In this document: in pieces, positions 3,578 through 21,589 of the stretch
How the letters are laid out: each line of letters begins with the position of its first letter
Numbering within the stretch: position 1 is the stretch's first letter
NCBI GenBank assembly: GCA_016873655.1
Contig: VGWI01000005.1
Location: forward strand, 1,455-65,454
Source of the DNA: Lentisphaerota bacterium
GTDB lineage: Bacteria > Verrucomicrobiota > Kiritimatiellia > UBA8416 > VGWI01
DNA: 64,000 nucleotides
Direction: 5' to 3'
Made by a program: the position numbers and the translations under genes
The notes under the pieces: generated by a model
The model's input: the letters and a program-made list of their open reading frames with translations, nothing else
Database searches by the model: none
Told to the model about the DNA's origin: nothing

Positions 3578-3578
3578 T

Positions 3579-4643
3579 TCAAAACACCTCTTGCGGCACG
3601 GCCAGAACAGTCTCGCCCTCGGTCAGGCCGGCAAGGATCTCGGTCCTGCCGTCCATCCTCATCCCGCTCCTGACAAGACGCCTTGAAGCCGTCCCGCCCC
3701 GGACGACATACACATACTCCAACTGGCCGACCCTGGTTATCGCCGAGTCCGGCAGCATGTATCTCCGGACCGGATCGTCCTCTACGTAAAGCCGCCCGAA
3801 TGTGCCCGGCAGAACCTGTCCGCCCGCTTCCGGAAGCGCTATCTTCACCTTCTGAGTCCTGCTCGCGGGATCCACCTCCCCGACGACCTCGGTTACCTTG
3901 CCCCTGAACGCCCTGGCGGGACGCTCGAGCACCACGTCCACCTCCTGGCCAAGCTTCAGTTTCTCCACCAGCCGCACGGGAATGTCGGCCTCCAGCCGCA
4001 TGCGCGCCGGATCGTACACCGAGAGGAGCGGCTGCCCGGGCCCCGCCAGGTCGCCGACCTCAATGCGCCGCTCGGTTACCACCCCGTCTATTGGCGACGA
4101 TATCCGCGCGTACGTCAGCATCACCCGCACCCTGTCCACCTGCGCCTTCGCGGCATTGAACGATGACTCCGCGGCGACAAGCGCCTGGTCCGTGGCCGCC
4201 TTCCCGTCAAACAACTGGCGCGTGCGCAGGAATTCCGTTTCCGCCTGCTTGAACTGCGCCTCGGCGCCGGCAAGCTGCTCCCGGATCTCCCGGTCATCAA
4301 GGACCACCAGTTCGTCCCCGCGCTTTACCGCCGTCCCGGACGAGACGTGCACGCTGCTGATCGTCGCCGGAATCCGCGCGCTGAGGTGTATCTTCTCCTC
4401 CGATGCCGTGGTCCCGACAACCTGCACAAGGGCCGGCGCCTCCTCCGCCTTCACGGCAACGGTTTCGGCATCCGCGCCTACAGCGACGCCTGTGCGGCCG
4501 TCCTCCATCACCCCTGGCGCGACCTTTTCCGTGCAAGCGCCGCCAACCCACGCCATTATCGCCGCAAGCGCGGCCGATCCCGCGATCCACCGTACCGAAC
4601 GCTTCGCCTTCCGAAGGATCTCCCCCATCCGTGATATGTTCAT
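3579..4643 (-). CDS. RND periplasmic adaptor (HlyD/MFP family)
   Basis: 354 aa. Lipoprotein-like N-terminus (AWVGGAC), coiled-coil hairpin segment (EQLAGAEAQFKQAETEF...), beta-barrel C-terminus. Located between the OMF and the RND pump. Confidence 0.85.
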   Translation of the reverse strand: MNISRMGEILRKAKRSVRWIAGSAALAAIMAWVGGACTEKVAPGVMEDGRTGVAVGADAETVAVKAEEAPALVQVVGTTASEEKIHLSARIPATISSVHVSSGTAVKRGDELVVLDDREIREQLAGAEAQFKQAETEFLRTRQLFDGKAATDQALVAAESSFNAAKAQVDRVRVMLTYARISSPIDGVVTERRIEVGDLAGPGQPLLSVYDPARMRLEADIPVRLVEKLKLGQEVDVVLERPARAFRGKVTEVVGEVDPASRTQKVKIALPEAGGQVLPGTFGRLYVEDDPVRRYMLPDSAITRVGQLEYVYVVRGGTASRRLVRSGMRMDGRTEILAGLTEGETVLAVPQEVF

Positions 4644-4670: not shown

Positions 4671-6032
4671 CTACTTCTTCGCGCCTTCCGCATTGCTGTA
4701 AATGCCAACCAGTTCCCCCCTCGCCCGAGCCAGGTTGGACCGCGCGACGAGACAGTCGTAGCGGGCCGCAACATTCCGCGACCGGGTCGCGGTCAACCCA
4801 AGCTCCGCGGTCAGGAGAATCGATATGTCCGCAACGCCCTGCCTGTAACGTTCCCTTGTTATCCGCGCCGCCTCCAACGCGTTCTCCACGCTCTTCCGGG
4901 CTACCTCGGCCCTTTCAATTGCCTCGTCAAACATCAGGCCGGCGCGTTTCACGTCAAGCGCAACGCTGCTCCTGGCCGCCACAGCCTCATGCCTGGCGGC
5001 ATCCAGGTCAGCCCTCGCCTGCGCAACGGCGTGACCGCGCTGGAATCCGGTGAAGACATCCCATTCCGCGGCCAGCCCGGCCATGTAGCTTCCCTCAAAC
5101 GAATCGCCTTCCTCGGTGTCCCAGTCGTATGAACCGAACAGGCTGACCGCCGGAGAATATGCGCGCCGCGCCCTTGCCAGCGCATTCTCGCTGACCCGCA
5201 CCATCGCATCGGCCGCCGCGACTTCGGCCCGCATGAATTCCGCCCCATCCTGCCCGCCCCGCACTTCGCACACCTCTCCCGCTCCATCACCTGCATCAGC
5301 TATCCCTGCTTCCGGAACGAGCTCGATCCCTATAGCCGTGTTCAAGGCGGCAATCGCCATGCGCACGCCGTTCCTGGAACGAATGAGATCCTCCTTCGCC
5401 TGGGCAAGCTGGACCTCCAGGTTCAAGACATCCGTCTGCACAGCCGCGCCTGCAGACAGCCTCTCGCGCGCCACCCTGAGGCTCTCTTCCAGGCTCGAGA
5501 CGGAACTTTCCATCACCCCCACGAAGGACTGCGCCTGCAGAACGCCGTAGTACCCCCTTGTCACCTCGTGTATCAAACCGTTCCTGGCAGCGCTCACCGC
5601 ATGGCCGGCCGCGGACGCCCCGGCTTCGGCCATCCCGGCCTGGGCGGCCCGCAGCCCGCCATCGAAACACCTGTACCTGAGACCGGCCGAGAACCTCATA
5701 TTCGCACTGTCATCCGGCTCGTTCGGGTTGAAAGCCGGATCCATCATGTCCAGCGAACGCTGGTTGAGCGCCATCATGAACGCCTGCGGCGGGTTGTCTG
5801 TCATCGCCCACGATGCGCCCACCCCCAACCTCGGCCACCACGCTGACCGCGCCTGCCCAACCGCCTCCCGCGCCGAAACGGCCCTCGCCGCCGCCGCGCG
5901 CACCCCGGGATTTCCCGACAACGCCTCGCGCACACACTCTCCCAGGGAAATGACAGCCGGAGCAGAAACACCGTCCGCGCCGGCGACACCGCACATCACC
6001 AACACCCCGGCAAGCCAGGTTACTGTCTTCAT
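4671..6032 (-). CDS. TolC-family outer membrane efflux protein
   Basis: Signal peptide MKTVTWLAGVLVMCGVAGA and two tandem TolC-like repeats. I chose the ATG at 6032, which overlaps the arsR stop (ATGA). The ORF-track start at 6062 is probably too long. Confidence 0.85.
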   Translation of the reverse strand: MKTVTWLAGVLVMCGVAGADGVSAPAVISLGECVREALSGNPGVRAAAARAVSAREAVGQARSAWWPRLGVGASWAMTDNPPQAFMMALNQRSLDMMDPAFNPNEPDDSANMRFSAGLRYRCFDGGLRAAQAGMAEAGASAAGHAVSAARNGLIHEVTRGYYGVLQAQSFVGVMESSVSSLEESLRVARERLSAGAAVQTDVLNLEVQLAQAKEDLIRSRNGVRMAIAALNTAIGIELVPEAGIADAGDGAGEVCEVRGGQDGAEFMRAEVAAADAMVRVSENALARARRAYSPAVSLFGSYDWDTEEGDSFEGSYMAGLAAEWDVFTGFQRGHAVAQARADLDAARHEAVAARSSVALDVKRAGLMFDEAIERAEVARKSVENALEAARITRERYRQGVADISILLTAELGLTATRSRNVAARYDCLVARSNLARARGELVGIYSNAEGAKK

Positions 6033-6331
6033 CGCGCTTTCCCCTTCCCCCTCATGCAACACAGCACACTCATGCAGCGCCTGTCCGCAAGGTCATACCA
6101 CACCTCTTTGCCGCGCCTTTCCGCGCGGACCAGCCCAGCCTGCCTCATACGCGCCAGGTGCCCGGACACAGCCCCCTGCTTCATCCCCGTCCTCGCCATT
6201 ACTTCATGCACAGGAGCAGCGCCACCGTCGCCAATGGCAATCAGCATCCGCAACCTCTGCGGATGCGCCATCAGCTTCAGCGACTCAGCCATCTTCTCCA
6301 GCGTCCGATCAGATACACGCGCCTTCTTCAT
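6029..6331 (-). CDS. ArsR/SmtB-family transcriptional regulator
   Basis: 100 aa. Carries the winged-HTH signature LKLMAHPQRLRMLIAI...VHEV......QGAVSGHLARMRQAGLV..ERRGKEVWY. It is the first gene of the efflux operon. Confidence 0.85.
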   Translation of the reverse strand: MKKARVSDRTLEKMAESLKLMAHPQRLRMLIAIGDGGAAPVHEVMARTGMKQGAVSGHLARMRQAGLVRAERRGKEVWYDLADRRCMSVLCCMRGKGKAR

Positions 6332-7150: not shown

Positions 7151-8914
7151 ATGAGGTCCGCGCGCAACCAAACGACCGGAGGCAGGGGGACCATGACGAA
7201 GGCGACTCTCGAGGAGAGATCGTCCGCCATAACCCTGTCCGACATGGAGATATTCATATTCCCCGACCTCATGTACTCGCTCGTGCTGGCGAACATCATG
7301 TCGCCCCGGGTCTGGCTCTGGCGCGATGATCCCTGGTTTGACGGGATAGAGCGCATGACGCCATACCGGCGCATAGTCCGGCTCAAGCAGTACCTTATGG
7401 ACCACTATGCCTTCAACCTGGACCTCGACACATGGGGCCTGACCACGAAACAGCGCGAGATCAGCCGCTTTGCCCCGTTCATCGATTCCGCCACCCTCGC
7501 CGAATCCAACGCTCTCTTCGGTTACGAGGGAGACAAGTACTACTTCGACATAGATATCCGGCGCCACTTCGGCCTGGACAAGTACGACACCGACACGATC
7601 CCTTACTGGAAGACGGAAACGGTCGAAGCCATGGACGCATTCCGCCACAGGCCCGGCTATTCGACCGGCGCGGGCGAATGCGTTTCTCTTTCCACTCTGT
7701 ACGCCGCGGCGCTCTTCATAGTCGCCCGGATACCCCTGAATGACATCTTCCTGCTCGCCACGCCGCTTCACTCGCAGAATTTCGTGGATGTTGACGACGG
7801 CGTCCTGACCAACAACCGCCGTATCGTGACCAAGAACATGTGGTTCAACGGGACAGCGCTCTCCGCACAGGCCCGGCGGGCGCTTGAGAACGAACGGGTC
7901 ACCGTGGTCGCCCACGAGTCCGGTCATGTCCACACGCTCTATCCTGAAGCCACGATGGACAGGGCCGCCTACAACCGGTTCAGCGCGAAGCTTTCCGGCT
8001 TCCTCGCAACCGATCTCACCGCAGACACCCTGGGCAACTTCCTGCGCCACAACACTTCCATACAGAAATGCTTCCAGGTCCGCTGGCCGAGGCACGGGGC
8101 CGATTCGTATATCGGCGTGGAACAGGTGCTGGCATACGAAAACTCGTGCCCTTACAGGCTGAGCGATCGCACGAGGCCGAAGCTGATGCAGGAGGTAGAG
8201 TCCGAGGAGTTCAGCCCCAACCCACTCGCTTCCCGCATCGTCCTGAACGATCTGGAGGATTTCCTCCGGACGGAGAAGATCAGCATCCTGGATGGGCCCG
8301 GAACCGCGCGGCTGAAGGAAAGGTTCGCGACAAGCTGCCTGAACGCGGAGATCGCAATAGAATCCCTGCGCCGGTTCTGCGTAACGCGCCCAAGGCTGCC
8401 TGATACGGCAGGGAAGACATTCGCCCCGTCATCAACCCCGCTGGGTCTGGACGTCGAAATGACGCGCGAGGAAGTGATCGAACGCCTTGGTTCGCTCAGA
8501 GACAGGTCCCGTACGGCGGACCTTTCCTTCTACGCATTCAGGGATGTGCTTTCCACGGACGCAGCCCCTTTTGTCACAGCGGCCTGCGCCCGTTCGCCGG
8601 TATCGCTCACGGCAACCGCCGACATGGACCTGCCGGATGTGCTGGAAAAACTGGCGCAGATGCCCGGAGATTCCATCTACGACGGCAAGGGCCGGTTGGC
8701 CCAGCCGGATGAAGTGTGGAACTTCGGCCGGGGTGACGGAGTTGAGAAGGCTCTCCTGCTGGCCAATATCCTTCACAACAGGCGGCCGGACGAGAAGGTC
8801 GGGATAACCTGCAACGGAAACAAAGTGCTGGTCTCATCCCCCGCCGGAGAATACCATTTCGAATGTGCAAAAGGGATAGTTGGCGCTGAATGGGTGGTGG
8901 AACCGAAAGTCTAG
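7151..8914 (+). CDS. hypothetical protein with a transglutaminase-like Cys-His core
   Basis: 587-aa ORF starting 4 nt after the thioredoxin stop; an alternative start is 7193. GAGECVSLSTLYAAALFIVARIP...TPLHSQNFVDVDDG resembles the papain/transglutaminase-like Cys...His...Asp arrangement. A second, Cys-less copy of the motif (GRGDGVEKALLLANIL) lies near the C-terminus. Confidence 0.6.
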   Translation: MRSARNQTTGGRGTMTKATLEERSSAITLSDMEIFIFPDLMYSLVLANIMSPRVWLWRDDPWFDGIERMTPYRRIVRLKQYLMDHYAFNLDLDTWGLTTKQREISRFAPFIDSATLAESNALFGYEGDKYYFDIDIRRHFGLDKYDTDTIPYWKTETVEAMDAFRHRPGYSTGAGECVSLSTLYAAALFIVARIPLNDIFLLATPLHSQNFVDVDDGVLTNNRRIVTKNMWFNGTALSAQARRALENERVTVVAHESGHVHTLYPEATMDRAAYNRFSAKLSGFLATDLTADTLGNFLRHNTSIQKCFQVRWPRHGADSYIGVEQVLAYENSCPYRLSDRTRPKLMQEVESEEFSPNPLASRIVLNDLEDFLRTEKISILDGPGTARLKERFATSCLNAEIAIESLRRFCVTRPRLPDTAGKTFAPSSTPLGLDVEMTREEVIERLGSLRDRSRTADLSFYAFRDVLSTDAAPFVTAACARSPVSLTATADMDLPDVLEKLAQMPGDSIYDGKGRLAQPDEVWNFGRGDGVEKALLLANILHNRRPDEKVGITCNGNKVLVSSPAGEYHFECAKGIVGAEWVVEPKV

Positions 8915-9139: not shown

Positions 9140-9502
9140 ATGGGAACTGCATCGGACCTGTGGTGGAAAATGAACAAGCAGACCGACGAAACCGGCGAGA
9201 CCGGCGAGAAACACACGCCCTATCTCACCGTTGAAGGCGATGCCAAACCCGGCAACGCCGTGAAGGTCACGGTTGACGTCGGACGCGGCAAACACCCCAA
9301 CGAGGCCGCACACAGCATCCAGTGGGTCGAACTGCGCGCGAACGATCTCTACATCGGAAGGGCCGAGTTCGCGGCCGGCATCACGAAGCCGATAGCGACG
9401 TTCACCGTCGTCGTCCCGGCCCAGGGCAGCATAGCGCTGACAGCCGTGGAGCGCTGCAACCTGCACGGGCTGTGGCAGAGCAATCCGCTCAAACTGGGTT
9501 GA
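9140..9502 (+). CDS. sor: superoxide reductase (1Fe-SOR / neelaredoxin type)
   Basis: Motifs GEKHTPYL, HPNEAAHSIQWVEL and CNLHGLW match the His4-Cys iron site of SORs. A GGAGGG Shine-Dalgarno lies 4 nt before the ATG. Confidence 0.85.
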   Translation: MGTASDLWWKMNKQTDETGETGEKHTPYLTVEGDAKPGNAVKVTVDVGRGKHPNEAAHSIQWVELRANDLYIGRAEFAAGITKPIATFTVVVPAQGSIALTAVERCNLHGLWQSNPLKLG

Positions 9503-9541
9503 CGGTCAGGATCAGAAACTGAAGGATGGCCGGGACAGCCG

Positions 9542-11455
9542 TCATGCTTGCCCGGCCATCCTTCTTCTTATGCGCACGGCCACCCGTGGCAGAGACCTGG
9601 CGCCAGACAGAAAAAGCCTGACCGGTCTGACAAGGAAATACAGGAACGCCAGACATCCGGGCAGATTCACGGCCTTCCAGTCGCTGTAGCTCGGAAGAAT
9701 CGCCAGAAGGGACAAATGCCGTATCCGGTCCCTCAGCCGCTCCCGGATCGCAAGATGAAAACGCAGACTCCTGTCCCAGGTTGAGCCTGCCCCGGAAGGC
9801 TTTGCCATGCAGTGCAACACCCTCTCGGCAAGCAGCTCTGCTTCCGCGTCTCCGCCCGACGGCCATCCTTCAAGTCCAGGGACGCCGGCCACTCCAGCCG
9901 CCAGCACGAGCCCCGTACGCACGATGCGCTCACAACCGGCCGACCGCGCCTGCCGCAACACATGCTCGCCGTCAAGACGGTCGCGCCGCGACAGCAACCC
10001 GGCAACGTCCATCACCCACATTGCCCTGTCCCACTCGTGCTTCGCACCATGAATGCAGCATAGAAAGAGGTGGTCCTCAGGCGATAGCGACGGCAGTTCA
10101 CAACCGTCTATCATCACCTGACGACGGCGACGCCAGAAGACATCGAAGTCGGGAAACGGCATGAAGTGTCTCGACACAACTCCGCACGACAGCTCAACGC
10201 TCAAAGGACTGCGTTTCGACCGGAAAGACATTTCACCCGTAAGCCGCGCGTGAACGGGCATCCGTTCGGTCGGGAGACCCCCCTGCCAGACGTAGCCGCA
10301 GTCCTCCATCACTTTCCACGCGCGGCCCATCTCCCGCCGGTCAATGAGAATGTCAACGTCCCAGGAGTTGCGCAGGAACGGATCGCCGTACGCCGCGAGA
10401 GAAAGAACGGGACCCTTGAGCGGCAGACACCTTACCCCTTCTCCACCCAGCTTCGCGCAAATGGCGCCGGTTTCAGCCAGTATCGCCAGACTCCTCGCCT
10501 TCGCATGGAGGGCATCCACTCGAAGCGATTCTCTTGTTTCCGAAGGAACGGTCTTCCACGCATGCCGTCGGAGCCCATCGAGGAGTAACGGCTGAACCGC
10601 GTGACTTCTCGCAAGGCGTTCGACTTCACTCCAATCGGAAACCTGGATCTTCAGGTCATCGGCCCTTGCAGGGCTCACAACGCAGGCACAAGCATCAATC
10701 ACTGCGTCGAGTTCTCGACCCCAACGGCGCCAGCCCGGAATTCTCCCCGCCCCCGGATCGGCGCGGCCAGCCACACCGTGAAAGGGTGAATGCGGCGGGG
10801 CCAGGACCTCGAACGGAAAACTGCAGCGCCAGCGTCCATCTTCGGCCCGTTCCCATCCCACAACCCGCCGCCCTACCATGAGCTTCCGCGTTGAATTCGG
10901 CCCTTCCCCAAACCGGACAATACGTGGTCGGCGCCGAAAGAGCACTGCACGGCATACGCTGTCAGACAACGCAAGCGCACGAAACGTCCGCGTCACGGCA
11001 CGCAGGATACGGCAGACCGAACGCGCAGACACGGCCAGCAGGAGACCCGTCACCCCACCCGCCACCCGCTTCACTTCCTTTCCGCGCCAACGCTTCACCA
11101 CAAGCCCCAGCACCTGCGTTCGATCAAGCGTCCACGGGTCGGCGCCACAACAGGCGTCGCCGCGAGTGCAGAGCGACCCAGGAACCCCGCTGACGACCCT
11201 ATGAACCACTATTCCGCCGGAACCGGACGGCACGGCGGCCACGACATCGCCAACCCGCACTGGCTTGTCGGCGCACGGGATTACCTCAAGAAGGTCGCCT
11301 TCCCGCAAAACCGGGAACATGCTGTCACCGCGATGTACGCAAAAGAACGCGCCCGAAGGGTCCCCGGGATTGACGGCAAATAAACGCTCTCCCCCAGCCA
11401 CGCGGGAAAAAGACAACTGAACAGCGGAAGGCGGCCTGTATCCGCAGGCTTTCAC
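9542..11455 (-). CDS. fusion of a SipW-type (S26B-like) signal/leader peptidase domain with an uncharacterised nucleotidyltransferase (NTP_transf_5-like)
   Basis: The N-terminus has HRGDSMFPVLREGDLLEV...GIVVHRVV...TRGDAC..D, a Ser/His peptidase pattern. The C-terminal part has LKGPVLSLAAYGDPFLRNSWDVDILI, typical of the nucleotidyltransferase family seen in lasso/RiPP clusters. I chose the GTG at 11455, which overlaps the upstream stop (GTGA); the track start at 11533 would overlap by 82 nt. Confidence 0.7.
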   Translation of the reverse strand: MKACGYRPPSAVQLSFSRVAGGERLFAVNPGDPSGAFFCVHRGDSMFPVLREGDLLEVIPCADKPVRVGDVVAAVPSGSGGIVVHRVVSGVPGSLCTRGDACCGADPWTLDRTQVLGLVVKRWRGKEVKRVAGGVTGLLLAVSARSVCRILRAVTRTFRALALSDSVCRAVLFRRRPRIVRFGEGPNSTRKLMVGRRVVGWERAEDGRWRCSFPFEVLAPPHSPFHGVAGRADPGAGRIPGWRRWGRELDAVIDACACVVSPARADDLKIQVSDWSEVERLARSHAVQPLLLDGLRRHAWKTVPSETRESLRVDALHAKARSLAILAETGAICAKLGGEGVRCLPLKGPVLSLAAYGDPFLRNSWDVDILIDRREMGRAWKVMEDCGYVWQGGLPTERMPVHARLTGEMSFRSKRSPLSVELSCGVVSRHFMPFPDFDVFWRRRRQVMIDGCELPSLSPEDHLFLCCIHGAKHEWDRAMWVMDVAGLLSRRDRLDGEHVLRQARSAGCERIVRTGLVLAAGVAGVPGLEGWPSGGDAEAELLAERVLHCMAKPSGAGSTWDRSLRFHLAIRERLRDRIRHLSLLAILPSYSDWKAVNLPGCLAFLYFLVRPVRLFLSGARSLPRVAVRIRRRMAGQA

Positions 11456-12351
11456 CTGGAAGGCGTCCTGCTGATGGCTTGCTCGATGGCGCTCCAGAAT
11501 CTGTTTCGGAGAGTGACTCGGAGAGAGAAACAAGGCACAGCCGAGGCTATCGCCCGCGCGTTGTCCAGTAGCTGGAGCCTTATCCGCCTTGTCTCCGCCC
11601 CGCCCGGCGCCTCAATCGCATCCCAGGAAGCATCATACGCCCTGCCCAGAAGCTCAATGGATGCGTTCGACACCCCCACAGGAGCAACGCGGCGCGCCGA
11701 ATCCCGAGACATGAAGAACACCCCGGCAAGCCGCACACCATGCGACACGCGCCAGGCCGCATTCGACTCTCCCTTGAACAGACGGCTCCACGTCGGCCAC
11801 GGATGAGCCCAGTAACTCCCGTCCGGCGCCTTGACCACAAGCGCTGCGTCATCGCTCAAAGACCGCCACGGCGCTTTGAAACGCCTGCTGGCCGTTGTCT
11901 TGCCCATTCCGGAAACACCAGCGAGAATGACACCTCTTCCTCGCAACTCCGCAAGTGCGCCGTGAAGAAGCAGCCCCCCGGATTCTTCAGCATGGCGGGA
12001 GAACACGTAGGCAAGCGACATCGCCCGCCCGATGAGCTCTGGTTCCCCTTCGAACGCCTCAACATGGCATGTCAACCGTTCGGGACTCGGAGGCCGGCCC
12101 CTGCACGGAGCCGCGGACGCGAAAGGAATGTATACGCGGGGAGCCACCACGCGACACTGCCGACGGCCCGACAACCGGGAAACAGACGCCACGTCGAGCA
12201 GCAGATTCGCAGCCACGGAAGACCTCGGCCGCTCGCATCTCATTGTGCGGCACAGGCGCCCGACCAGCTGACCGGCAATGCCATCCGCCCCTTCAAGACG
12301 CCACACAGCGCCACTCTTGAGGCGCAAACACCGCCCGCTGGACAAACCCAT
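11452..12351 (-). CDS. HPr-kinase-related protein (ScmC-like)
   Basis: 299 aa. LHGALAELRGRGVILAGVSGMGKTTASRRF resembles the HprK/P P-loop region. It sits 27 nt downstream of the precursor gene. Confidence 0.7.
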   Translation of the reverse strand: MGLSSGRCLRLKSGAVWRLEGADGIAGQLVGRLCRTMRCERPRSSVAANLLLDVASVSRLSGRRQCRVVAPRVYIPFASAAPCRGRPPSPERLTCHVEAFEGEPELIGRAMSLAYVFSRHAEESGGLLLHGALAELRGRGVILAGVSGMGKTTASRRFKAPWRSLSDDAALVVKAPDGSYWAHPWPTWSRLFKGESNAAWRVSHGVRLAGVFFMSRDSARRVAPVGVSNASIELLGRAYDASWDAIEAPGGAETRRIRLQLLDNARAIASAVPCFSLRVTLRNRFWSAIEQAISRTPSR

Positions 12352-12378
12352 CTCGGCTTCCGTTCCGGCGGCCCCGGG

Positions 12379-12588
12379 TCAGCTTCCCTGGTTACCGGAC
12401 GCACAGGAACCGCTGGGAGGAACGTTGCCGCTCTTGCACTGGTTCACCTGCGGCGTGCTCCCGTTGCCACACACCTGCGAAACGCTGGTGCCATGACTGC
12501 ATTTCTGCATCACACCACGCCCGCTGGCCAGCCCACCCAGAGGCAGAACCGTCGGCTTCGCCCATTCCGGCTTCTGATTCTCTTTCAC
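12379..12588 (-). CDS. RiPP precursor peptide (69 aa, Cys/Gly/Ser/Asn-rich core)
   Basis: GTG start at 12588, preceded by AAGGGAGGA with a 6-nt spacer. Sequence: (M)KENQKPEWAKPTVLPLGGLASGRGVMQKCSHGTSVSQVCGNGSTPQVNQCKSGNVPPSGSCASGNQGS. It lies between the rSAM genes and the kinase-like gene. The track lists only a 111-aa version that overlaps the rSAM gene. Confidence 0.6.
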   Translation of the reverse strand: MKENQKPEWAKPTVLPLGGLASGRGVMQKCSHGTSVSQVCGNGSTPQVNQCKSGNVPPSGSCASGNQGS

Positions 12589-12625
12589 TGCTTGTCCTCC
12601 CTTGCTCAGGAACGTTCCTGCAGCT

Positions 12626-13717
12626 TCAAACCGTACCGCCAACACGGGTGCTCGGAAACAAGCCCTGCTCCTCTGCCTGCTCACAGAACCAGTAAGGCCC
12701 CCACATGCTGCCAAGCCTGTAATAATTCTGAGCCAGGCACGCCCCCAAGCATCTTGAATTCATGAGACAACGACCGCAGACGCCCTGCAGCCTCTGCGGC
12801 AACCCCGCGCGAATCTCGCCCAGAACGCGGCTTCCGCGCCATATTCCGCTTAGATTATCCTTCCCTGCCATTCCGAAAACAAGCTCTTTCACCTGCATTC
12901 CTATGCCGCACAAGGCGTAGTGGCCGGTGCTCAGAAGACCTAGTATCGTCAGTATCCCGCAACTTTCGTCTGATCTGGCGATCCGTCCCAGCGGACGGAA
13001 TGCCTGCGGAATGTCGAAGTGGAGCGACATCCTGGTCCTGGCGGCCAGATCCGAATCAACGATCCGCCCCGCGGCAACAAGCTCCTCTACGCCCGGCAAC
13101 GCATTGGCCCGACCAAGATCAGCCCCGCGCGCTGTCGGCTCAACCATGTTGAACCTAACGGACCCGGCGCCAAGCCGCTCAGCCATCCTTACCACCGCCT
13201 CGATCTGGCCCATGTTCTCGCGCACAAGAGTCATCACAACCTGGGGCGCCAGCCCCGCTTCCGACAGGTTCCTGACCGCACGGCAAGCCTTGTCGAATGA
13301 CCCGGCAATGCCCCTCAGCCACTCGTGCGTGGCGGCGTCTGCCCCGTCAATGCTCACCGACACAAACGGCCTTGGCGCTCCGGCGATCAGCCTGGCCGTC
13401 TCAGGAGTGCATAGAAGACCGTTTGTCTCGACCTGCACGGATACTCCAGCCTTCGACGCTATCTCGACAAGATCGCCGAACCGAGGGTGAAGCAGCGGCT
13501 CGCCACCGGTGAACTTGACCGACGACAGGCCCAAAGGCTTGGCTTCACGAACCACCCCCTCAAACACGTCCACGGGGAGAACGGCATGCCCGCTGCCGTC
13601 AGCATCGAACTTGGGCGCCAGCCAGCAGTGCCTGCACGCAAGGTTGCACCCTTCCGTGAGGTAACAGTAGATCGTCCCGAGCGGCGGCACGCTGCCGTCT
13701 TCAACGGCATCACTCAT
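12626..13717 (-). CDS. radical SAM/SPASM-domain peptide maturase
   Basis: CNLACRHC (CxxxCxxC) near the N-terminus. The C-terminus has Cys-rich SPASM motifs (CGILT...ALCG, CGRCLMNSRCLGAC). Its start overlaps the upstream rSAM stop by ATGA. Confidence 0.9.
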   Translation of the reverse strand: MSDAVEDGSVPPLGTIYCYLTEGCNLACRHCWLAPKFDADGSGHAVLPVDVFEGVVREAKPLGLSSVKFTGGEPLLHPRFGDLVEIASKAGVSVQVETNGLLCTPETARLIAGAPRPFVSVSIDGADAATHEWLRGIAGSFDKACRAVRNLSEAGLAPQVVMTLVRENMGQIEAVVRMAERLGAGSVRFNMVEPTARGADLGRANALPGVEELVAAGRIVDSDLAARTRMSLHFDIPQAFRPLGRIARSDESCGILTILGLLSTGHYALCGIGMQVKELVFGMAGKDNLSGIWRGSRVLGEIRAGLPQRLQGVCGRCLMNSRCLGACLAQNYYRLGSMWGPYWFCEQAEEQGLFPSTRVGGTV

Positions 13718-14850
13718 GGTATATCCTCCGGCCTTCCGCCTGAATCAAGGAAGCGCCTGAGACAGCCGTCGGGACTCGGCGCATTCACCCGCCGGCTCTG
13801 CGTGTAAGCCATGGCAGGACAGCTGCCCGTGCAGTACGGAGAATAGAGACACGCGCGGCAGTACTCGAAATCCTTCAACTCTATTGAAGATCTCGACCTC
13901 AATTCGGCGAGCACCGGACTGTTATTCCAGACCGCTTCGAGCGAATCTTTGTTGATTCTCCCCATCTCCATGTGCGCGAGCAGCACACAGGGGATAATTA
14001 CGCCGTCGGCACGGACAGCACATGTTGTGAAATGGCAACCGCACCCGGTCAGCCTCCCGCCGTCATCAAAGGTCCCGGCCCCGCATCCGGCGGCATCCAG
14101 CATCTTCCTCCACGTCAGGGCATCGGCAAGAGGCCCGGCATTGGCCAGAACCCTGCCCGGATACCGGCCCGCAATTCTCACAAGCGCCTGCATCGCCTCG
14201 GCGTGGAGAGCGGGATCAAGAAGCAGTTCGTCGGCGTGCCGCCGGCATGTTCCGATATACCCCGCGGAATTGGTCCCGAATCTCGCCAGCCCAAGATCTT
14301 CGAGAAGAAACCGCGCCGTCTCTTCCAGATGGCCGACGTTGTGACGACTGATGGTCACGCGCACGCCAACCGGAATGCTGTGCGACTGAAGACGTTTGAG
14401 CCCGGCAATCGCGGCATCGAAACTGCCCCGGCCCCGGGTCGCGTCATGGATCCTGGCGCATGGGCCATCCACGGAAACCTGCACCTGGTCACACCTGTTG
14501 GTCCGCGCAATGAACGCAGCCATGGAGTCGTCTATAAGCGTTCCGTTGCTCAGAACCGCAAAACGCATCCTGTTCTCAACCACCCCGCTGATGACTTCCC
14601 GAAGGTCGCCGCGCATGAAGGGCTCGCCGCCCTGGAGCGTCACCCGCATGACCCCGCAGCGGCCCAGCTCCTCAAAGAAACTCAACCATTCCCCGAGTGG
14701 AAGATCGTGATAGGGCACTTCGGGATTGTCGAAGAAGTAGCAGTAGCTGCATCGCTGGTTGCATGCGGCTGTTATCTCTACGTCAACGTACCTGGGGGTG
14801 CGTATCACGCGCATCCCATGCGCCGACCCCCCTTTTTCTCCATCGGACAT
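13714..14850 (-). CDS. radical SAM/SPASM-domain peptide maturase (second copy)
   Basis: CNQRCSYC cluster and C-terminal SPASM cysteines (GCGCHFTTC...PC, YCRACLYSPYCTGSCP). The ATG at 14850 is 2 nt after the PqqD-like stop. I rejected the 503-aa track version because it overlaps the PqqD-like gene. Confidence 0.9.
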   Translation of the reverse strand: MSDGEKGGSAHGMRVIRTPRYVDVEITAACNQRCSYCYFFDNPEVPYHDLPLGEWLSFFEELGRCGVMRVTLQGGEPFMRGDLREVISGVVENRMRFAVLSNGTLIDDSMAAFIARTNRCDQVQVSVDGPCARIHDATRGRGSFDAAIAGLKRLQSHSIPVGVRVTISRHNVGHLEETARFLLEDLGLARFGTNSAGYIGTCRRHADELLLDPALHAEAMQALVRIAGRYPGRVLANAGPLADALTWRKMLDAAGCGAGTFDDGGRLTGCGCHFTTCAVRADGVIIPCVLLAHMEMGRINKDSLEAVWNNSPVLAELRSRSSIELKDFEYCRACLYSPYCTGSCPAMAYTQSRRVNAPSPDGCLRRFLDSGGRPEDIP

Positions 14851-14852
14851 GT

Positions 14853-15143
14853 CTACCCCTCGGCACCCTCGGCGACGCCGAAGAAACCGTCGCGCGCGAG
14901 TTCGTCTGCGAAAGACAGCACTTCGCCGGACGCACCCTCCGGCACGTTGCTGAAACGCCGGGCAACGGTGGCGGCTATGTCCCTCAAGGAACGCGTGCCG
15001 TCGGCCTGCTTCCAGATCTCGACCCCAACCGGGTTGGTCCCGACCGCGGCGCTGGTGTCGGGATTGAACAGAATCGCCCAGTCGTCGGATTCCTCCCTGA
15101 GCACTACCACGGGGTTCGGCACGGGCGCGTCGTCGAGTTTCAT
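14853..15143 (-). CDS. PqqD-family peptide chaperone (RiPP recognition element, ScmD-like)
   Basis: 96 aa. ...ILFNPDTSAAVGTNPVGVEIWKQADGTRSLRDIAATVARRF......EVLSFADELARDGF is the typical PqqD/RRE pattern. It is the first gene of the minus-strand operon. Confidence 0.8.
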   Translation of the reverse strand: MKLDDAPVPNPVVVLREESDDWAILFNPDTSAAVGTNPVGVEIWKQADGTRSLRDIAATVARRFSNVPEGASGEVLSFADELARDGFFGVAEGAEG

Positions 15144-15390
15144 CGTCGGGCCTCTTACGCTGATTTGGACTCAAATCTGCACATTTCGCGTCTTCCATTG
15201 TCTCAACGGCATTTCGCTCTTGCAAGGCACTAATGCCGCCCTACCCTTGTGCAATGAACGGCGCGGCACAAGCATCCTGTCGGGAACCTGTCTCTCGCGG
15301 CAGCCATCTCTGCAGAAAGGTCTGAACTTGGCTATACCTCCACGAGGCGTGGGCTCACGCGGCGGTAGGGCCCGTTCAACGGACGACCCA

Positions 15391-17181
15391 GTGAAGGCGC
15401 CCGAACTCTTTCGCCGCCTCACACGCACCATCATGCTGGTCTGGAGGGCGGCGCCCGGATGGACGGCCTGCAACTCGGTTCTGCTTCTTGTTCAAGGCAT
15501 CCTGCCGCTCCTTACCCTCTACCTGATCAAACGCATCACCGACACAATCACAGCCGCTGCCACATCAGGCGGCGCGGATGTGCGTCAATCGGCAATTCTG
15601 ATCGCCGCCGCGGCGGGTGCGGCGCTGTTCGGCGCAATGTGCGCAAGCCTCGGCAGACTGGTCACCGAAATGCAGGCGCAGACGGTAACGGACTACGTTC
15701 TCGACCTCCTGCACGCCAAATCGCTTGAGACGGACCTGGAGTACTACGAGACCCCGTCATACTACGACACTCTCCACATGGCTCAGATGGAGGCGCCGTA
15801 CCGCCCTCCCATGATCGTCAACAACCTCGTCCAGGTCGTCCGAGGCGGCATATCACTGACAGCGGTCGCAGGGCTTCTGTTCGCGTTCCACTGGGGGCTG
15901 ACGCTTATCCTCGTGTCCGTGGCGCTGCCGGGCATGGTCTTTCGTTTCCGCCAGTCGAAAGACCTGTTCCGATGGCACCGCCGGAGAACCCCGACGGAAC
16001 GGAAGGCGAATTACTACAGTTGGATGATGACAACCGACGCGCACGCGAAGGAAAACCGCCTGCTGGGGCTCGCCGACATTCTCCGGGACCGCTTCATGGA
16101 ACTGCGCCTGGTTATGCGCGGCGAACAGCGCTCGCTGGCCGCCCGCCGGGCAGGCCGGGAACTGCTTGCGCAGACGGCTTCAATCCTCGCGGGCTTCGGA
16201 GTGCTTCTGTCCATGGCCGCAAGGGCCATCAAGGGAAGCATCACCCCCGGCCATCTCGTCATGCTCTACATGGCCTTTCAACGCGGACAGGGGTTCATGT
16301 CGGAAATGACGAACGGGCTCGTGTCGCTGTACGAAAACAGCCTCTTCATCAGTTCCTTCTACACGTTCCTGGACGTGAAACCGCGCGTTTCAGAATCGCC
16401 TTCGCCCGTTGCCGCTCCGTCGCTCAGAAAGAGCGAGATCCGTTTCGAGTCGGTGAGCTTCTCATACCCGGGGAGCGACCGGCCGGCCATTGAGAACGTT
16501 TCTTTCGCAATCCGCCCCGGTTCGCGCGTGGCACTGGTGGGTGAGAACGGGGCCGGCAAGACGACCCTCGTGAAACTGCTCTGCCGGCTCTACGACCCGT
16601 CCGGCGGCCTGATTACGGTCGGCGGCACGGACCTCCGCGACCTGCGCACGCCGGAATGGCGCTCAGGCATCGGGATACTGTTCCAGGATTACGCACGCTA
16701 CCAGCTCAGCGCGCGCGAAAACGTCTGGCTCGGGAACGTCGCCCTGCCGCCCGACGACATCCGCCTGCACTCGGCGGCGGCAGCCTCGGGCGCGGACGAA
16801 GTGATCCGCTCGCTTCGCGACGGCTACGACACGCAGCTCGGCAAATGGTTCGAAAACGGCGAGGAACTCAGCGTCGGCCAGTGGCAGAAAATCGCGCTGG
16901 CACGGTGCTTCGCGCGAGACGCGGACCTCTTCATCCTCGACGAGCCGACAAGCGCGCTGGACGCGCAAGCCGAGAACGAGGTGCTGGAAGCGTTCCGCAG
17001 GCTGGCGGCGGGGAGAACGGTGATCACGATCAGCCACAGACTCTCAACGGCGCGGTGTGCGGACCTGATAGTCGTGCTGGACAACGGCCGCATAGTCGAG
17101 CAGGGAGCGCACGACGAGCTGATGTCCTCGAACGGGGTCTACGCACGGCTGTTCAATCTCCAGGCCCATAACTACGCCTGA
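15391..17181 (+). CDS. ABC exporter, fused permease/ATPase (MsbA/MdlB type), no C39 peptidase domain
   Basis: Six-TM N-terminal half. Walker A GENGAGKTTL, signature LSVGQWQKIALAR, Walker B LFILDEPTSALD. The start is GTG 15391 or ATG 15433. The track fuses it to an antisense artefact (13972-17181). Confidence 0.85.
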   Translation: MKAPELFRRLTRTIMLVWRAAPGWTACNSVLLLVQGILPLLTLYLIKRITDTITAAATSGGADVRQSAILIAAAAGAALFGAMCASLGRLVTEMQAQTVTDYVLDLLHAKSLETDLEYYETPSYYDTLHMAQMEAPYRPPMIVNNLVQVVRGGISLTAVAGLLFAFHWGLTLILVSVALPGMVFRFRQSKDLFRWHRRRTPTERKANYYSWMMTTDAHAKENRLLGLADILRDRFMELRLVMRGEQRSLAARRAGRELLAQTASILAGFGVLLSMAARAIKGSITPGHLVMLYMAFQRGQGFMSEMTNGLVSLYENSLFISSFYTFLDVKPRVSESPSPVAAPSLRKSEIRFESVSFSYPGSDRPAIENVSFAIRPGSRVALVGENGAGKTTLVKLLCRLYDPSGGLITVGGTDLRDLRTPEWRSGIGILFQDYARYQLSARENVWLGNVALPPDDIRLHSAAAASGADEVIRSLRDGYDTQLGKWFENGEELSVGQWQKIALARCFARDADLFILDEPTSALDAQAENEVLEAFRRLAAGRTVITISHRLSTARCADLIVVLDNGRIVEQGAHDELMSSNGVYARLFNLQAHNYA

Positions 17182-17694: not shown

Positions 17695-18795
17695 TCACGA
17701 GAACTTGTCGTAGAATATCCTGTCCTCGGGCATGCCCTTCTTCTTCAGCAACTCAACGCAGGCGTCTATCATCAACGGGCTGCCGCAGAGATACGCCTCT
17801 TTCTCGGACACATCACCGGCGCGACGGCCGACGACGTCGGTCACAAGACCGGTCTCGCCGCTCCATTCATCGCCGCCCTCCGGCGCGGCAAGAGAGGGTA
17901 TGAACCTGAACGACGGCATCTCGCGCTCAATCCGCTGCATCAGATCCTCCAGGAACAGGTCTTCCCGAGACCGCGCCCCGAAGTAGTACTCCGCGTTGCG
18001 ACGGCAGCCCGTGCGGGCCATCTCGAGCAGCATTGACTTGATGGGCGCCATCCCTGACCCGCCGGCAATGAAGATCACGTCGCGCCCGGTGTCGGAAAGC
18101 CGGAAGTCGCCGTATGGTCCGTTTATGTTCACCCTTTCGCCGACCTTCAAGTGCCTGTGCACGTAAGTGGTGCAGATGCCGTTCGGCACGTAGCGGATCT
18201 CCAGCTCGATCGCGCCCCGGTCAACCGGGTCGGACGATATGGAGTAGGCCCTGTAGACAGGCTCGTCGGTGAGCTTGTATGCAGGCACTTCGAACTGCAC
18301 GTACTGACCCGCCTTGAACGTCATCGCGCCCGGCTCGATCAGCTTCAGCCGCACTTCCTTGATATCGTGTGTAAGGTCCGCGATCGATGCCACCTCCACT
18401 TCGTACTGGGCAACGGACAGCAGTTCTTCGGGAATCCGGATTGCCAGGTCGCCCTTCACCTTCACCTGGCACGCAAGCCGGACGCCGCCCTTCACTTCAT
18501 CCTTCGAAAGCCACGGCAGCTCAGTGGCAAGGGGCTCTCCGCCGCCTTCCACCCGCACCTTGCACAACCCGCAGGAGCCGCGCCCGCCGCAGGCGGACGG
18601 TATGAAAATGCCGCTGTCCTTCAGCGTGGACAGAAGCGACCGCCCGCCCGCCGCCTTCACTTCGCGGTCCCCGTTCACGCGGACAGTGCATTCCCCGTAG
18701 TCGCCGACTGTCGCGCCGGCAAAAAGGATCAGGCCGGTGAGGACCAGGTTGATCGCCACCGCCACGCCGACCGCCAACAGGAAAGCCCCGAGCAT
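17695..18795 (-). CDS. NqrF-like subunit (TM helix + 2Fe-2S ferredoxin + FAD/NAD(P)H reductase)
   Basis: N-terminal TM helix, ACGGRGSCGLCKV...RLACQV (plant-type 2Fe-2S), RAYSIS (FAD), GGSGMAP (NAD). Confidence 0.85.
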   Translation of the reverse strand: MLGAFLLAVGVAVAINLVLTGLILFAGATVGDYGECTVRVNGDREVKAAGGRSLLSTLKDSGIFIPSACGGRGSCGLCKVRVEGGGEPLATELPWLSKDEVKGGVRLACQVKVKGDLAIRIPEELLSVAQYEVEVASIADLTHDIKEVRLKLIEPGAMTFKAGQYVQFEVPAYKLTDEPVYRAYSISSDPVDRGAIELEIRYVPNGICTTYVHRHLKVGERVNINGPYGDFRLSDTGRDVIFIAGGSGMAPIKSMLLEMARTGCRRNAEYYFGARSREDLFLEDLMQRIEREMPSFRFIPSLAAPEGGDEWSGETGLVTDVVGRRAGDVSEKEAYLCGSPLMIDACVELLKKKGMPEDRIFYDKFS

Positions 18796-18836
18796 TTCGC
18801 CTCCGGTGAAACTGACAAAGCCGACTCTGAATGGAC

Positions 18837-19430
18837 TCAGTTAAGCCGCATCATGCCGTTGAAACCCATGAACGCCAGCGCCATTATGCCCGCGATCACC
18901 AGCGCGAGCCCCGCGCCCTCCATGCCCTTCGGAACACGAGAGCCGCCGATCCTCTGGCGGATTCCCGCCATCGCAAGTATCGCCACGGCCCAGCCCACGC
19001 CGCTCCCCGCACCGTATGCGAGGGATTCGAGAAACGTGTATGACCTGATGACCATGAAAAGGCTCACCCCGAGAATGGCGCAGTTGACCGTTATGAGCGG
19101 CAGGAATATCCCGAGCGCCGCATAGAGCGTGTCGGAAACGCGCTCGATAACCATCTCCACGATCTGAACGAAGGCCGCGATGACCACGATGAAGACAATG
19201 AACCGCAGGTACTCGAGCCCCAGCGGCGCCAGCACGAAGGAGTACACAAGCCAGTTGAGGACGCTCGTGGCAGTCATCACGACAACAACCGCCGCCCCAA
19301 GTCCCATCGATGTCTTCACCTCGCGCGATACGCCGAGAAACGAGCACATTCCGAGGTAGTTCGTGAGAAGTATGTTGTTCGTGAACACCGCCGCGAAAAA
19401 CACGGCAAATGCATGTCCCATGGAGTTCAC
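18837..19430 (-). CDS. RnfA/NqrE-family membrane subunit
   Basis: Polytopic. NNILLTNYLGMCSFLGVS and LPLITVNCAILG are typical of RnfA/NqrE. GTG 19430 overlaps the upstream stop (GTGA); an alternative ATG is at 19421. Confidence 0.85.
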   Translation of the reverse strand: MNSMGHAFAVFFAAVFTNNILLTNYLGMCSFLGVSREVKTSMGLGAAVVVVMTATSVLNWLVYSFVLAPLGLEYLRFIVFIVVIAAFVQIVEMVIERVSDTLYAALGIFLPLITVNCAILGVSLFMVIRSYTFLESLAYGAGSGVGWAVAILAMAGIRQRIGGSRVPKGMEGAGLALVIAGIMALAFMGFNGMMRLN

Positions 19431-20050
19431 CGCGCACCTGCCTTCCCCGCATCCGCCGGCGCGGAATCGAGCCACACGCCTTTCACGATCCATATGAAGA
19501 CGGCCAGCATGAAGAAGGCGCCTGGCGCGGTCACCATGATGGACCAGTTGACCCATCCGTCTCCAAGCACCCTGACACCCCAGATCGTGCCCGAGCCCAG
19601 CAGCTCGCGGAAGAACGCGATGACCAGCAGAACATACGAGTAACCGACGCCGGAGGAGACTCCGTCGGCCAGCGCCGCGCCAGGCGGATTGGTCAGGGCA
19701 AAGGCCTCTGCCCTGCCCATGACTATGCAGTTGGTTATGATCAGGCCGACATACGGGCCGAGCTGGCGCGCTATGTCCGGAACGAACGCCCTCAATGCAA
19801 TGTCAACGACGATGACGTAAGAGGCTATCACCAGCACCTCCACCATCATTCTCACTCGGCCCGGAATCAGCCTGCGCATCGCGGAAACAGTCACGTTCGA
19901 CAGCGCCAGGGTGAAGATAAGCCCCAGGCACATGACCGCCGTGTTCTTGAGCACATTGGTGACTGCCAGCGTGGAGCAGATGCCGAGTATCTGCGCGAAT
20001 ACCGGGTTGTCCCGGCCAAGGTTGCGCAGAACTATCTTCCCGGTTTTCAA
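19427..20050 (-). CDS. RnfE/NqrD-family membrane subunit
   Basis: NPVFAQILGICSTLAVT and GLIITNCIVMGRAEAFA are typical of RnfE/NqrD. The start appears to be TTG at 20050, 1 nt after the upstream stop. Confidence 0.85.
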   Translation of the reverse strand: MKTGKIVLRNLGRDNPVFAQILGICSTLAVTNVLKNTAVMCLGLIFTLALSNVTVSAMRRLIPGRVRMMVEVLVIASYVIVVDIALRAFVPDIARQLGPYVGLIITNCIVMGRAEAFALTNPPGAALADGVSSGVGYSYVLLVIAFFRELLGSGTIWGVRVLGDGWVNWSIMVTAPGAFFMLAVFIWIVKGVWLDSAPADAGKAGAR

Positions 20051-20051
20051 T

Positions 20052-20651
20052 TCATTCCCCTCCCCGGATGTCCGGAATCGCGCCGTTCACAAGATCGCGC
20101 ACGGCCGACGACGTGATCGTCGCGCCGGTTATGGCATCAATCTCCGTCGGAGCTGCCGAGCCTGTCCCCTCGGGAACGAGGCTGAAAGGCCCGGTCTTCC
20201 CGCGGAACTGCCCCACGAACCATGCCTCCTCAATGCGCGCCCCAAGCCCGGGGGTCTCGTTCTGCTCGGTGAACGCCACACCCGTCAACGTCTTCCCGTC
20301 CCCGGAAAAGCCAACCAGCCCGCGCACCCGCCCCCACAAACCCGCCGCCTCCGCCTCCAGCACAACCGCCGCGGAGCCGCCGGTGCCGCCGCGTACCCGG
20401 TAGGCAACGCGGCCCGACTGCAGGACCTCGCGCTCCACATCCCCGGCCCACCACCGGTTCAGCTCTGATGCGCCCGTGGCCGGCAGCCCGGCAGCGGCCC
20501 GCACCGCCTTCCGCAGGAACAGCGACTCGTTGGCGGCCACCACGTTTGCCGTGGCGAGATGCAGACCCGCAACCGCGCCGATGCAGACCGCCGTCACGGC
20601 CGTCATGAACAGCATCGTGGCAAGCCATTCAGAACGCCCGGTCTTTTTCAC
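20052..20651 (-). CDS. RnfG/NqrC-family FMN-binding subunit
   Basis: N-terminal TM anchor, FMN_bind region with GLGARI and the flavinylation-type motif DAITGATITS. GTG 20651 overlaps the RnfD-like stop (GTGA). About 199 aa, which is RnfG-like in size. Confidence 0.8.
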   Translation of the reverse strand: MKKTGRSEWLATMLFMTAVTAVCIGAVAGLHLATANVVAANESLFLRKAVRAAAGLPATGASELNRWWAGDVEREVLQSGRVAYRVRGGTGGSAAVVLEAEAAGLWGRVRGLVGFSGDGKTLTGVAFTEQNETPGLGARIEEAWFVGQFRGKTGPFSLVPEGTGSAAPTEIDAITGATITSSAVRDLVNGAIPDIRGGE

Positions 20652-21589
20652 GCACGCCCTTTCTTCTGGACGGCCCTGATGGCATGGTCGGTTATCGGGG
20701 CGAACATGTTGGCGAGCAGTATCGCGAACATCGTGCCGGCCGGCCACGCGGAGAACACCGATATCACCGGCGACATGGCGCCTATGAAAGCGCCGTAGAT
20801 CCATCTGCCTGGATTGGTCTGGGCGGCGGATACGGGGTCGGTCGCATAGAAGAAGAGCCCGATGGCTATGCTTCCGCCCAGCGCCGTATGCAACGGGTCG
20901 CCGGCGCCTTGAACGCCCGCAAGCCAGAGCGCGGTCTGGGTAACGAAAAACGCCGCCCATGCGGAAACAACGATTCTGTAGTTGGCGGCCTTGGTCCACA
21001 CGAGATACAGGCCGCCCAGTATCGCCAGCAGGGCCGTTGTGCCGCCAACCGTTCCGGACGTCGCGCCGGTAAGCAGCGGCACTATGTCCTGCGCCACCCC
21101 GTCCTTCATGAGCATGCCCGGCGTGGCGCGGGTAACCGCGTCAGCCGCATAAGCCCCCCAGCCGCCGGCAGGGCCGCCAACCGGCTCCACCCACGATGCG
21201 GTCATGTGCCCGCCGAAGCTTGCGTAAAGGAAGGCGCGCCCGGTCAGGGCCGGATTGAACACGTTGCGACCGAACCCGCCGAACACCATCTTCCCGAAGA
21301 GAACCGCCACCACGATCCCGACCGCAACCATCCACATGGGAAGATTCGGGGGGAGCGAGAGAACATACAGGAAACACGTCACGAAAACGGCGGAGCTTAC
21401 CGATTGCCCCCACCTCCGCACAAAGGCGTACTCGGTGAGGAAACCCGCCGCACAGGCGATCGCCAGCATCACGAGAACCCGCCAGCCGAAGAAATGGATC
21501 GAGGCGAGAACTATCGGCGTAAGCGCAAGCAGCACCCGCTTCATCGGCAACTGCCACTTGATCAACGGAACTGAAGATGTCTCGGACAT
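20648..21589 (-). CDS. RnfD/NqrB-family membrane subunit
   Basis: 313 aa, polytopic. GGFGRNVFNPAL and TGATSGT (S/TGAT flavinylation-type motif). Its size is nearer RnfD than NqrB. Confidence 0.85.
   Translation of the reverse strand: MSETSSVPLIKWQLPMKRVLLALTPIVLASIHFFGWRVLVMLAIACAAGFLTEYAFVRRWGQSVSSAVFVTCFLYVLSLPPNLPMWMVAVGIVVAVLFGKMVFGGFGRNVFNPALTGRAFLYASFGGHMTASWVEPVGGPAGGWGAYAADAVTRATPGMLMKDGVAQDIVPLLTGATSGTVGGTTALLAILGGLYLVWTKAANYRIVVSAWAAFFVTQTALWLAGVQGAGDPLHTALGGSIAIGLFFYATDPVSAAQTNPGRWIYGAFIGAMSPVISVFSAWPAGTMFAILLANMFAPITDHAIRAVQKKGRA

Follow-up and report, generated by a model that had tools for sequence, protein, structure and literature searches.

A GTG-initiated C-x-x-G repeat peptide gene as the probable precursor of a SynChlorMet-type radical SAM cassette

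Streptosactin (GggA/GggB) is a type II unnested sactipeptide in which a SPASM enzyme generates Cys25-Ser28 and Cys31-Gly34 alpha-thioethers (PMC8172795). In this system, C-x-x-G and C-x-x-S motifs become i to i+3 rings that follow one another unnested and do not build a hairpin. The peptide gene examined here lies in a 64-kb window (the whole stretch of DNA that was analysed) and encodes C-x-x-G motifs that would be suited to rings of this kind. By contrast, streptosactin has an unrelated leader, a single radical SAM enzyme and only two rings at 6-residue spacing, and is found in a Firmicute quorum-sensing context without an RRE protein, kinase or NTase. The homology of its maturase to the two maturases of the present locus, ScmE and ScmF, is merely generic.

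A second point of comparison is provided by the lasso peptides paeninodin and pseudomycoidin. In pseudomycoidin, the C-terminal Ser is the phosphorylation site of the HprK-type kinase PsmK, in which D158 and D159 are essential, and the NTP transferase PsmN adds a hexose to the phosphate (PMC6993621). These systems have in common with the present cassette a PqqD-type RRE, a leader with YxxPxLxxxG spacing, an HPr-kinase-like enzyme, an NTP transferase and an ABC exporter (PMC6993621). The peptide of the window also ends in Ser, as do PadeA and PsmA, although a C-terminal Ser is not conserved across the related precursors. Unlike the core of a lasso peptide, however, the core encoded here would be worked on by radical SAM enzymes, and no match to an Asn-synthetase-like macrolactam synthetase or B2 protease was detected among the cassette genes from 9542 to 17181.

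Repeat-motif ranthipeptides are also known, namely freyrasin with its CxxxD motif and the NxxC peptides. Together with the ACGX-repeat peptides (TIGR04340 system), these resemble the peptide of the window in having a variable count of short Cys repeats and iterative SPASM processing, but differ in motif (C-x-x-G with a 10-11-residue period in the present case), leader and accessory genes. When scored on the ACGX maturase model, ScmE reached 79 bits compared to a cut-off of 400.

The cassette to which the locus compares most directly, SynChlorMet (SCM), is catalogued in TIGRFAMs/NCBIfam and is experimentally uncharacterised; in the full-text library that was searched, no paper on the cassette was found. 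The locus agrees with the catalogue in that ScmE, ScmF and ScmC score above their equivalog cut-offs and a PqqD homologue is present, and the overall precursor architecture corresponds, by way of a relative of the peptide, to that of the ScmA model. It differs from the catalogue in that the sub-family of the window fuses an S26-type peptidase to NTP_transf_5. SCM cassettes are unusual in combining a pair of SPASM enzymes and an S26-type peptidase with a leader, RRE and kinase that are lasso-like.

The peptide gene and its product

The gene for the precursor peptide, which is of a divergent ScmA type, was located on the minus strand at 12379..12588 and consists of 69 codons and a stop, with a GTG start codon at 12588..12586 and a TGA stop at 12381..12379. 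A Shine-Dalgarno sequence, AAGGGAGGA (12595..12603, minus strand), is positioned 6 nt 5' of the GTG and separated from it by the spacer caagca (12594..12589). Upstream is the stop codon of scmF (12628..12626). The sequence-only reading had proposed the GTG at 12588, with this Shine-Dalgarno site and a 6-nt spacer, as the start; this placement was confirmed, and the translation it had given proved to be exact. That reading had also described the start as missed by the open reading frame track. The mechanical ORF list does contain only a 111-aa version that begins at a TTG (12379..12714), but this merely follows from the ORF-listing rule; the identical 69-aa GTG product (P0001) has already been called by metagenome gene callers. 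The longer version does have 42 codons before the GTG, all of which had been taken to overlap the radical SAM gene; only about 30 of these are within scmF, and about 12 are in the 37-nt intergenic spacer. The 111-aa ORF was rejected as a real gene based on its overlap with scmF and its lack of a Shine-Dalgarno site and of conservation. The internal ATG (Met26) was likewise ruled out as a start, since Met26 lacks conservation and the homologues reach further, to the aligned N-terminus.

A search of 5.8 billion proteins yielded 11 close homologues of 69-77 aa, in which the four Cys residues and the Gly residues at +3 to each were invariant by alignment. In six orthologous genes (that of the window and five others), the start codons were aligned in all six (three ATG, three GTG), and each was preceded by an AGGAGG-like site at 5-8 nt. 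The summed pairwise differences among these six genes were 289, 278 and 573 at codon positions 1, 2 and 3, respectively, a pattern that reads as the signature of purifying selection on the protein. Thus, the region evolves as coding DNA, and the possibility that it is untranslated, which the earlier reading had named as a reason to abandon its proposal, is not borne out. Based on the aligned starts, the Shine-Dalgarno sites and the third-codon excess, we conclude from comparative sequence analysis that the peptide gene is real, that the GTG is its true start and that it is translated. When the window was scanned with an HMM of the peptide family, the gene was the only match, at 80.9 bits compared to 11.4 bits for the next best score, and no second precursor copy was detected in the 64 kb. 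A promoter and terminator scan of 9300..15600 revealed nothing beyond shuffle expectation.

The 69-residue product can be divided, at an inferred boundary, into a leader of residues 1-25 (12514..12588, minus strand) and a core of residues 26-69 (12382..12513, minus strand). The leader contains the arrangement W9-x-x-P12-x-V14-x-x-x-G18 and ends in G23-R-G25; residues W9, P12, L17, G18 and G25 were invariant in the alignment with the 11 close homologues. The recognition motif of lasso peptides is YxxPxLxxxG, and the leader of the window peptide reproduces its spacing. Weak matches to the lasso leader model NF033521 were observed for 3 of 49 relatives.

The core carries Cys at residues 30, 40, 51 and 62 (minus-strand codons 12501..12499, 12471..12469, 12438..12436 and 12405..12403), at spacings of 10, 11 and 11 and each in a C-x-x-G context. 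The four C-x-x-G quasi-repeats described earlier are real: when the 44-residue core was shuffled 200,000 times, the presence of all four Cys in CxxG had a P of 2e-4, and spacings of only 10-11 residues had a P of 8e-4, while the two features were found jointly in 0 of the 200,000. The C-terminal Ser, which had been noted alongside the modules, is indeed the last residue of the window peptide, and Ser or Thr ends 9 of the 12 close relatives. Across the family, however, Ser or Thr is terminal in only 18 of 63 precursors. This residue was thus rejected as a defining feature, since an unconserved residue cannot define the family.

The cassette and its relatives

The peptide gene is part of a tightly packed minus-strand operon in the order scmD–scmE–scmF–peptide–scmC–(S26 peptidase/NTP_transf_5). 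The first gene, scmD (14853..15143), encodes a PqqD-like RiPP recognition element of 96 aa (PF05402, 48.3 bits). The next two encode radical SAM/SPASM maturases: scmE (13714..14850; PF04055, PF13186), which specifies 378 aa from an ATG at 14850 that was selected by alignment with locus L081, and scmF (12626..13717; PF04055), which specifies 363 aa. ScmE scored 496.5 bits on TIGR04250 over model positions 1-356 of 358, and ScmF 478.1 bits on TIGR04251 over positions 2-352 of 353, the cut-off being 400 for each. CxxxCxxC and CxxCx5Cx3C motifs are present in the maturase translations beside the Cys-containing precursor; in ScmF, CNLACRHC corresponds to the radical SAM cluster and CGRCLMNSRCLGAC to the SPASM domain. 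Downstream of the peptide gene, scmC (11452..12351, minus strand) encodes an HPr-kinase-like P-loop protein of 299 aa that scored 145.7 bits on TIGR04249 (cut-off 125) and whose orthologues are annotated as PF27840 ScmC. The last gene of the operon (9542..11455, minus strand) encodes an S26-like/NTP_transf_5 fusion of about 637 aa (TIGR02228 and PF14907), the GTG start of which overlaps the scmC stop as GTGA. An ABC exporter gene (15391..17181, plus strand; PF00005, 108.7 bits) is divergently transcribed and is placed and oriented alike in L081 and L082. The starts of the fusion and exporter genes were set by alignment.

Related loci were identified with ScmF as the query, using one genome per species. 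By this approach, 15 orthologous loci with ScmF identities of 47-62% were found in hosts that included Anaerolineae, Chromatiaceae, Deltaproteobacteria, Acidobacteriota, Aminicenantes, Chlorobiaceae, Campylobacterota, Syntrophus and others, and more distant loci were recovered as well. The set ScmD-ScmE-ScmF-ScmC was kept in most of these loci as judged by tblastn, while a stand-alone S26-like peptidase was detected in nine loci and NTP_transf_5 in only a few. ScmD was conserved upstream of ScmE in L001-L015 and L081-L083.

Precursors at these loci were sought with the peptide-family HMM and a simple periodic-CxxG scan. Small ORFs, mostly right after ScmF, were found to encode a K-x-[YW]-x-x-P-x-[VL]-x-x-L-G leader followed by 3 to 20 C-x-x-G modules; ORFs of this leader-and-repeat type adjoin ScmF in 14 genome loci of about ten phyla. 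In the window, the small leader and Cys-repeat ORF lies between scmF and scmC, and an equivalent position was observed in L003, L005, L010, L013 and L081-L087. The close homologues P0006, P0011, P0004, P0007 and P0001 are each encoded immediately upstream of ScmC and directly downstream of a radical SAM gene or gene fragment. The precursor of L015 has ten C-x-x-G modules, and that of L017 (a Candidatus Delongbacteria MAG; 2990-3733, plus strand), encoded right after the ScmF homologue, is a 236-aa protein with the family leader and 20 consecutive modules, the upper extreme of a range of 2 to 20 Cys. In addition, 1.84 billion cluster representatives were searched exhaustively with HMMER, and 43 of the 46 matches at E <= 1e-3 were small peptides of 53-119 aa with the architecture of the window peptide.

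Some of these loci have peculiarities of their own. In L081 (6864-7999) and L082 (5945-7080), the closest long contigs, the gene calls divide ScmF into two adjoining ORFs (164 and 213 aa) in two independent assemblies (JGI; Logan), which could reflect a real frameshift, a split gene or one organism sampled twice. In L086 (1208-4806), the peptide homologue P0008 is located beside DDE and rve transposase genes, with a 103-aa remnant at the position of ScmF, and insertion elements have apparently interrupted the cassette.

Family statistics were based on 63 precursors with 2-20 Cys each and 310 Cys in all. Gly was present at +3 for 296 of the 310 Cys (95%) and at +3 or +4 for 305 (98%), 194 of 247 Cys-Cys spacings were 10 or 11 residues, and the leader motif [YW]xxPx[LVIMF]xxxG was found in 50 of the 63 precursors. 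Loss of the Cys periodicity at orthologous loci would have counted against the earlier proposal; the periodicity is instead kept. The family-wide core unit thus emerges as a C-x-x-G module that is 10-11 residues long and occurs 2-20 times per precursor, and to it are added a lasso-like leader motif and, for the window genome, a substrate gene with its true start.

The relation of the peptide to the curated ScmA model, TIGR04252 (SCM_precur_ScmA; 49 positions, 35-bit cut-off), is less direct. The window peptide gave no match to this model even at E <= 10. Sub-threshold matches were obtained for 18 of 49 relatives with a best E of 5.4e-6, and the best among relatives scored individually was P0052 with 24.5 bits. 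Its alignment covers the model end to end (positions 1-49) and takes in the YEPP leader and three C-x-x-G modules. The 35-bit cut-off was reached by no peptide that was scored. When the 49-sequence alignment was used in a profile search for ScmA-named proteins, only unnamed or 'hypothetical' peptides were recovered, and the named database entries for such peptides read 'hypothetical protein'. The absence of a match for the window peptide and the sub-threshold matches of its relatives suggest a divergent member of the ScmA kind that lies outside the curated boundary. The curated model is so narrow that no tested peptide passes it, and the 63 precursors would serve as a better annotation seed.

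Taken together, the cassette context and the 63 related precursors support the proposal, made from the window DNA before these comparisons, of a precursor for the adjacent radical SAM enzymes, and we consider it highly probable that the peptide gene is the translated precursor of an SCM radical SAM RiPP cassette. A different explanation would be that the peptide is not a substrate at all, but a Cys-rich disulfide or metal-binding peptide that merely resides inside the operon and is perhaps kin of proteins with CGNG...QCDDGN repeats. The family HMM does cross-match three long secreted CGNGxxxxxxEQCDDGN proteins with 11-residue spacing, and one family member weakly matches TIGR02232. These cross-matches are limited to one short stretch, however, and the window peptide is without a signal peptide. 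A strict association, held across phyla, with two SPASM enzymes and a PqqD RRE, the RRE-type recognition motif in the leader and a module number that varies as is typical of RiPP cores also speak against this explanation, which we regard as extremely unlikely. The three long secreted proteins (P0019, P0032 and P0035) were rejected as relatives, as they contain myxobacterial-type cysteine-rich acidic repeats. Their CGNGxxxxxxEQCDDGN repeats (TIGR02232 type) have the 11-residue Cys spacing of modules 2-3 of the window peptide (VCGNGSTPQVNQCKSGN), and the likeness is probably convergent.

The C-x-x-G modules and candidate ring chemistry

With the peptide taken as an SCM precursor, the PqqD-like ScmD would bind the leader motif and hand the core to the enzymes. 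ScmE and ScmF begin directly with CxxxCxxC and have no N-terminal RRE, which makes the separate ScmD the likely leader-binding element. One or both of the SPASM radical SAM enzymes ScmE and ScmF would then modify every module at its Cys. The pairing of SPASM enzymes with an invariant Cys points to a radical route to thioethers. The product predicted as most likely is a small, unnested thioether ring in each module that joins the Cys sulfur to C-alpha of the near-invariant Gly at +3, and the outcome would be a 'beads-on-a-string' peptide. This Cys-Gly ring is favored based on the Gly at +3 being the only other near-invariant residue of the module and on the precedent of streptosactin. Taken alone, Cys-Gly sactionine chemistry is nonetheless a tentative assignment to which we would give somewhat less than an even chance.

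The maturases themselves were found to be of little help in this assignment. ScmE and ScmF resemble MftC, AhbD, WgkB and PqqE at least as closely as they resemble sactisynthases, and their nearest solved structures are SkfB, BlsE, PqqE, CteB, SuiB and anSME at E values of 1e-17 to 1e-7. With similarity at this generic level, the enzyme sequences provide no specific pointer to thioether formation. The invariant Gly at +3 could be a conformational requirement instead of an acceptor.

The same modules could be read as substrates for ranthipeptide crosslinks, in which the Cys sulfur would be joined to C-beta or C-gamma of a Ser, Asn or Thr at +2 or +4, or of an Ala or Pro at +6, with the Gly at +3 providing only a turn. 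Positions with a matching bias were detected in 114 modules, where S/N/T accounted for 59% at +2, S/N/G/T for 75% at +4 and A/P for 56% at +6; ScmE has a generic match of 90 bits to ranthipeptide maturases of the PapB type, and ranthipeptides with repeated motifs, such as freyrasin and NxxC, are familiar. Yet positions +2, +4 and +6 are far less conserved than the Gly at +3 (95%), whereas the acceptor residue is invariant in the known repeat ranthipeptides. An SCM precursor with ranthipeptide crosslinks is thus possible but doubtful.

Carried to the cassette as a whole, the Cys-Gly ring would make the SCM products a new RiPP class: linear strings of 2-20 i to i+3 Cys-Gly alpha-thioether rings installed by a SPASM pair under a lasso-type leader and RRE, with an HPr-kinase homologue (and, in some lineages, an NTP_transferase) and an S26B-type leader peptidase. 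This composite proposal is speculative, and we hold it to be improbable in its entirety. If true, it would mean that machinery of lasso peptides and of sactipeptides has been put together as an evolutionary mosaic that is spread among anaerobes of about ten phyla. The significance of the locus is that of a genome-mining lead and of a design for heterologous reconstitution; nothing known is overturned.

Tailoring, leader removal and export

ScmC has a Walker A motif followed by an aspartate pair (GVSGMGKTT...LSDD at residue 145), and this arrangement was kept in six loci. The enzyme may phosphorylate Ser or Thr of the peptide, and in the sub-family of the window NTP_transf_5 may decorate the phosphate. 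The C-terminal part of the fusion protein scored 181 bits on NTP_transf_5 (PF14907) and carries a KG...DVD nucleotidyltransferase motif; the NTase DxD is conserved in the related loci as well. PsmN is presumably also a PF14907 member. The presence of both enzyme types and of a terminal Ser or Thr in 9 of 12 members makes pseudomycoidin-like tailoring plausible for this sub-family. Across the SCM loci, ScmC is a core member of the cassette and the C-terminal Ser and NTase are not, so that the Ser and Thr residues of the modules are a more likely general target. Since the C-terminal Ser is unconserved and most SCM loci lack NTP_transf_5, phospho-glycosylation in the style of lasso peptides would be at most an embellishment of the sub-family.

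Phosphorylation of the modules could also be an activation step in a route that resembles that of lanthipeptides. ScmC would phosphorylate the module Ser and Thr residues, elimination would give dehydro-amino acids to which the Cys would add, and the radical SAM enzymes would, e.g., epimerise or form C-C crosslinks. Ser or Thr occurs within +1 to +5 of the Cys in 254 of the 310 modules (82%), and ScmC, whose kinase motifs are intact, belongs to the core of the cassette. The remaining 18% of modules, however, are without Ser or Thr near the Cys, no lyase or cyclase homologue was found among the cassette genes, and two SPASM enzymes with an invariant Cys are the classic signature of a radical thioether. 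We consider this lanthionine-like route, as the non-substrate explanation above, to be unlikely, and here the chance is small.

For the precursor modified by radical thioether chemistry, removal of the leader may be carried out by the N-terminal part of the fusion protein. This part contains the boxes of an ER/archaeal-type (S26B) signal peptidase (GDSMFPVL, VVHRV and TRGDA) and matched TIGR02228 at E = 1.1e-6; it spans about residues 1-160, with S45 in GDSMFPVL and H85 in VVHRV. Orthologues of the fusion are annotated as Peptidase_S24/S26 with NTP_transf_5. The S26 boxes GxSMxPxL / VHR[VI] / TRGDN were conserved in nine SCM loci. A conserved S26B-type peptidase and a leader that ends in G-x-G suggest cleavage at that site, and the ER-type signal-peptidase-like domain would remove the leader behind this small-residue segment. 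The activity of S26 peptidases is normally found outside the membrane, and we infer for the S26-like domain a role as a cytoplasmic leader peptidase. The conserved S26-type enzyme is in this way a candidate leader peptidase added by the present analysis and, if the assignment is true, would be the first RiPP leader peptidase of the S26B type. The finished product would leave the cell through the divergently encoded ABC exporter, which is probably the export pump.

Several neighbouring genes were also observed. In L083 (8064-13291) and L084 (4904-7029), both of the close sub-family, NTP_transf_5 is followed by opposite-strand glycosyltransferase genes (Glycos_transf_4, Glyco_trans_1_4 and Glycos_transf_2), a block that could provide sugar decoration or could merely be a neighbouring polysaccharide locus. 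In the window, a gene for a TolC-like outer-membrane efflux protein (4671..6062, minus strand; PF02321, 184 bits) is located downstream of the cassette, and on the opposite strand from it is a 587-aa ORF without a Pfam match (7151..8914, plus strand); L081 and L082 have a 583-aa gene, also with no recorded Pfam match, at the equivalent position and orientation. On the other side, immediately beyond the ABC exporter gene, an Nqr/Rnf-type operon was read from translations at 17695..21000 (minus strand), with an NqrF-like 2Fe-2S/FAD subunit encoded at 17695..18795 and membrane subunits at 18837..20050 and 20052..20999.
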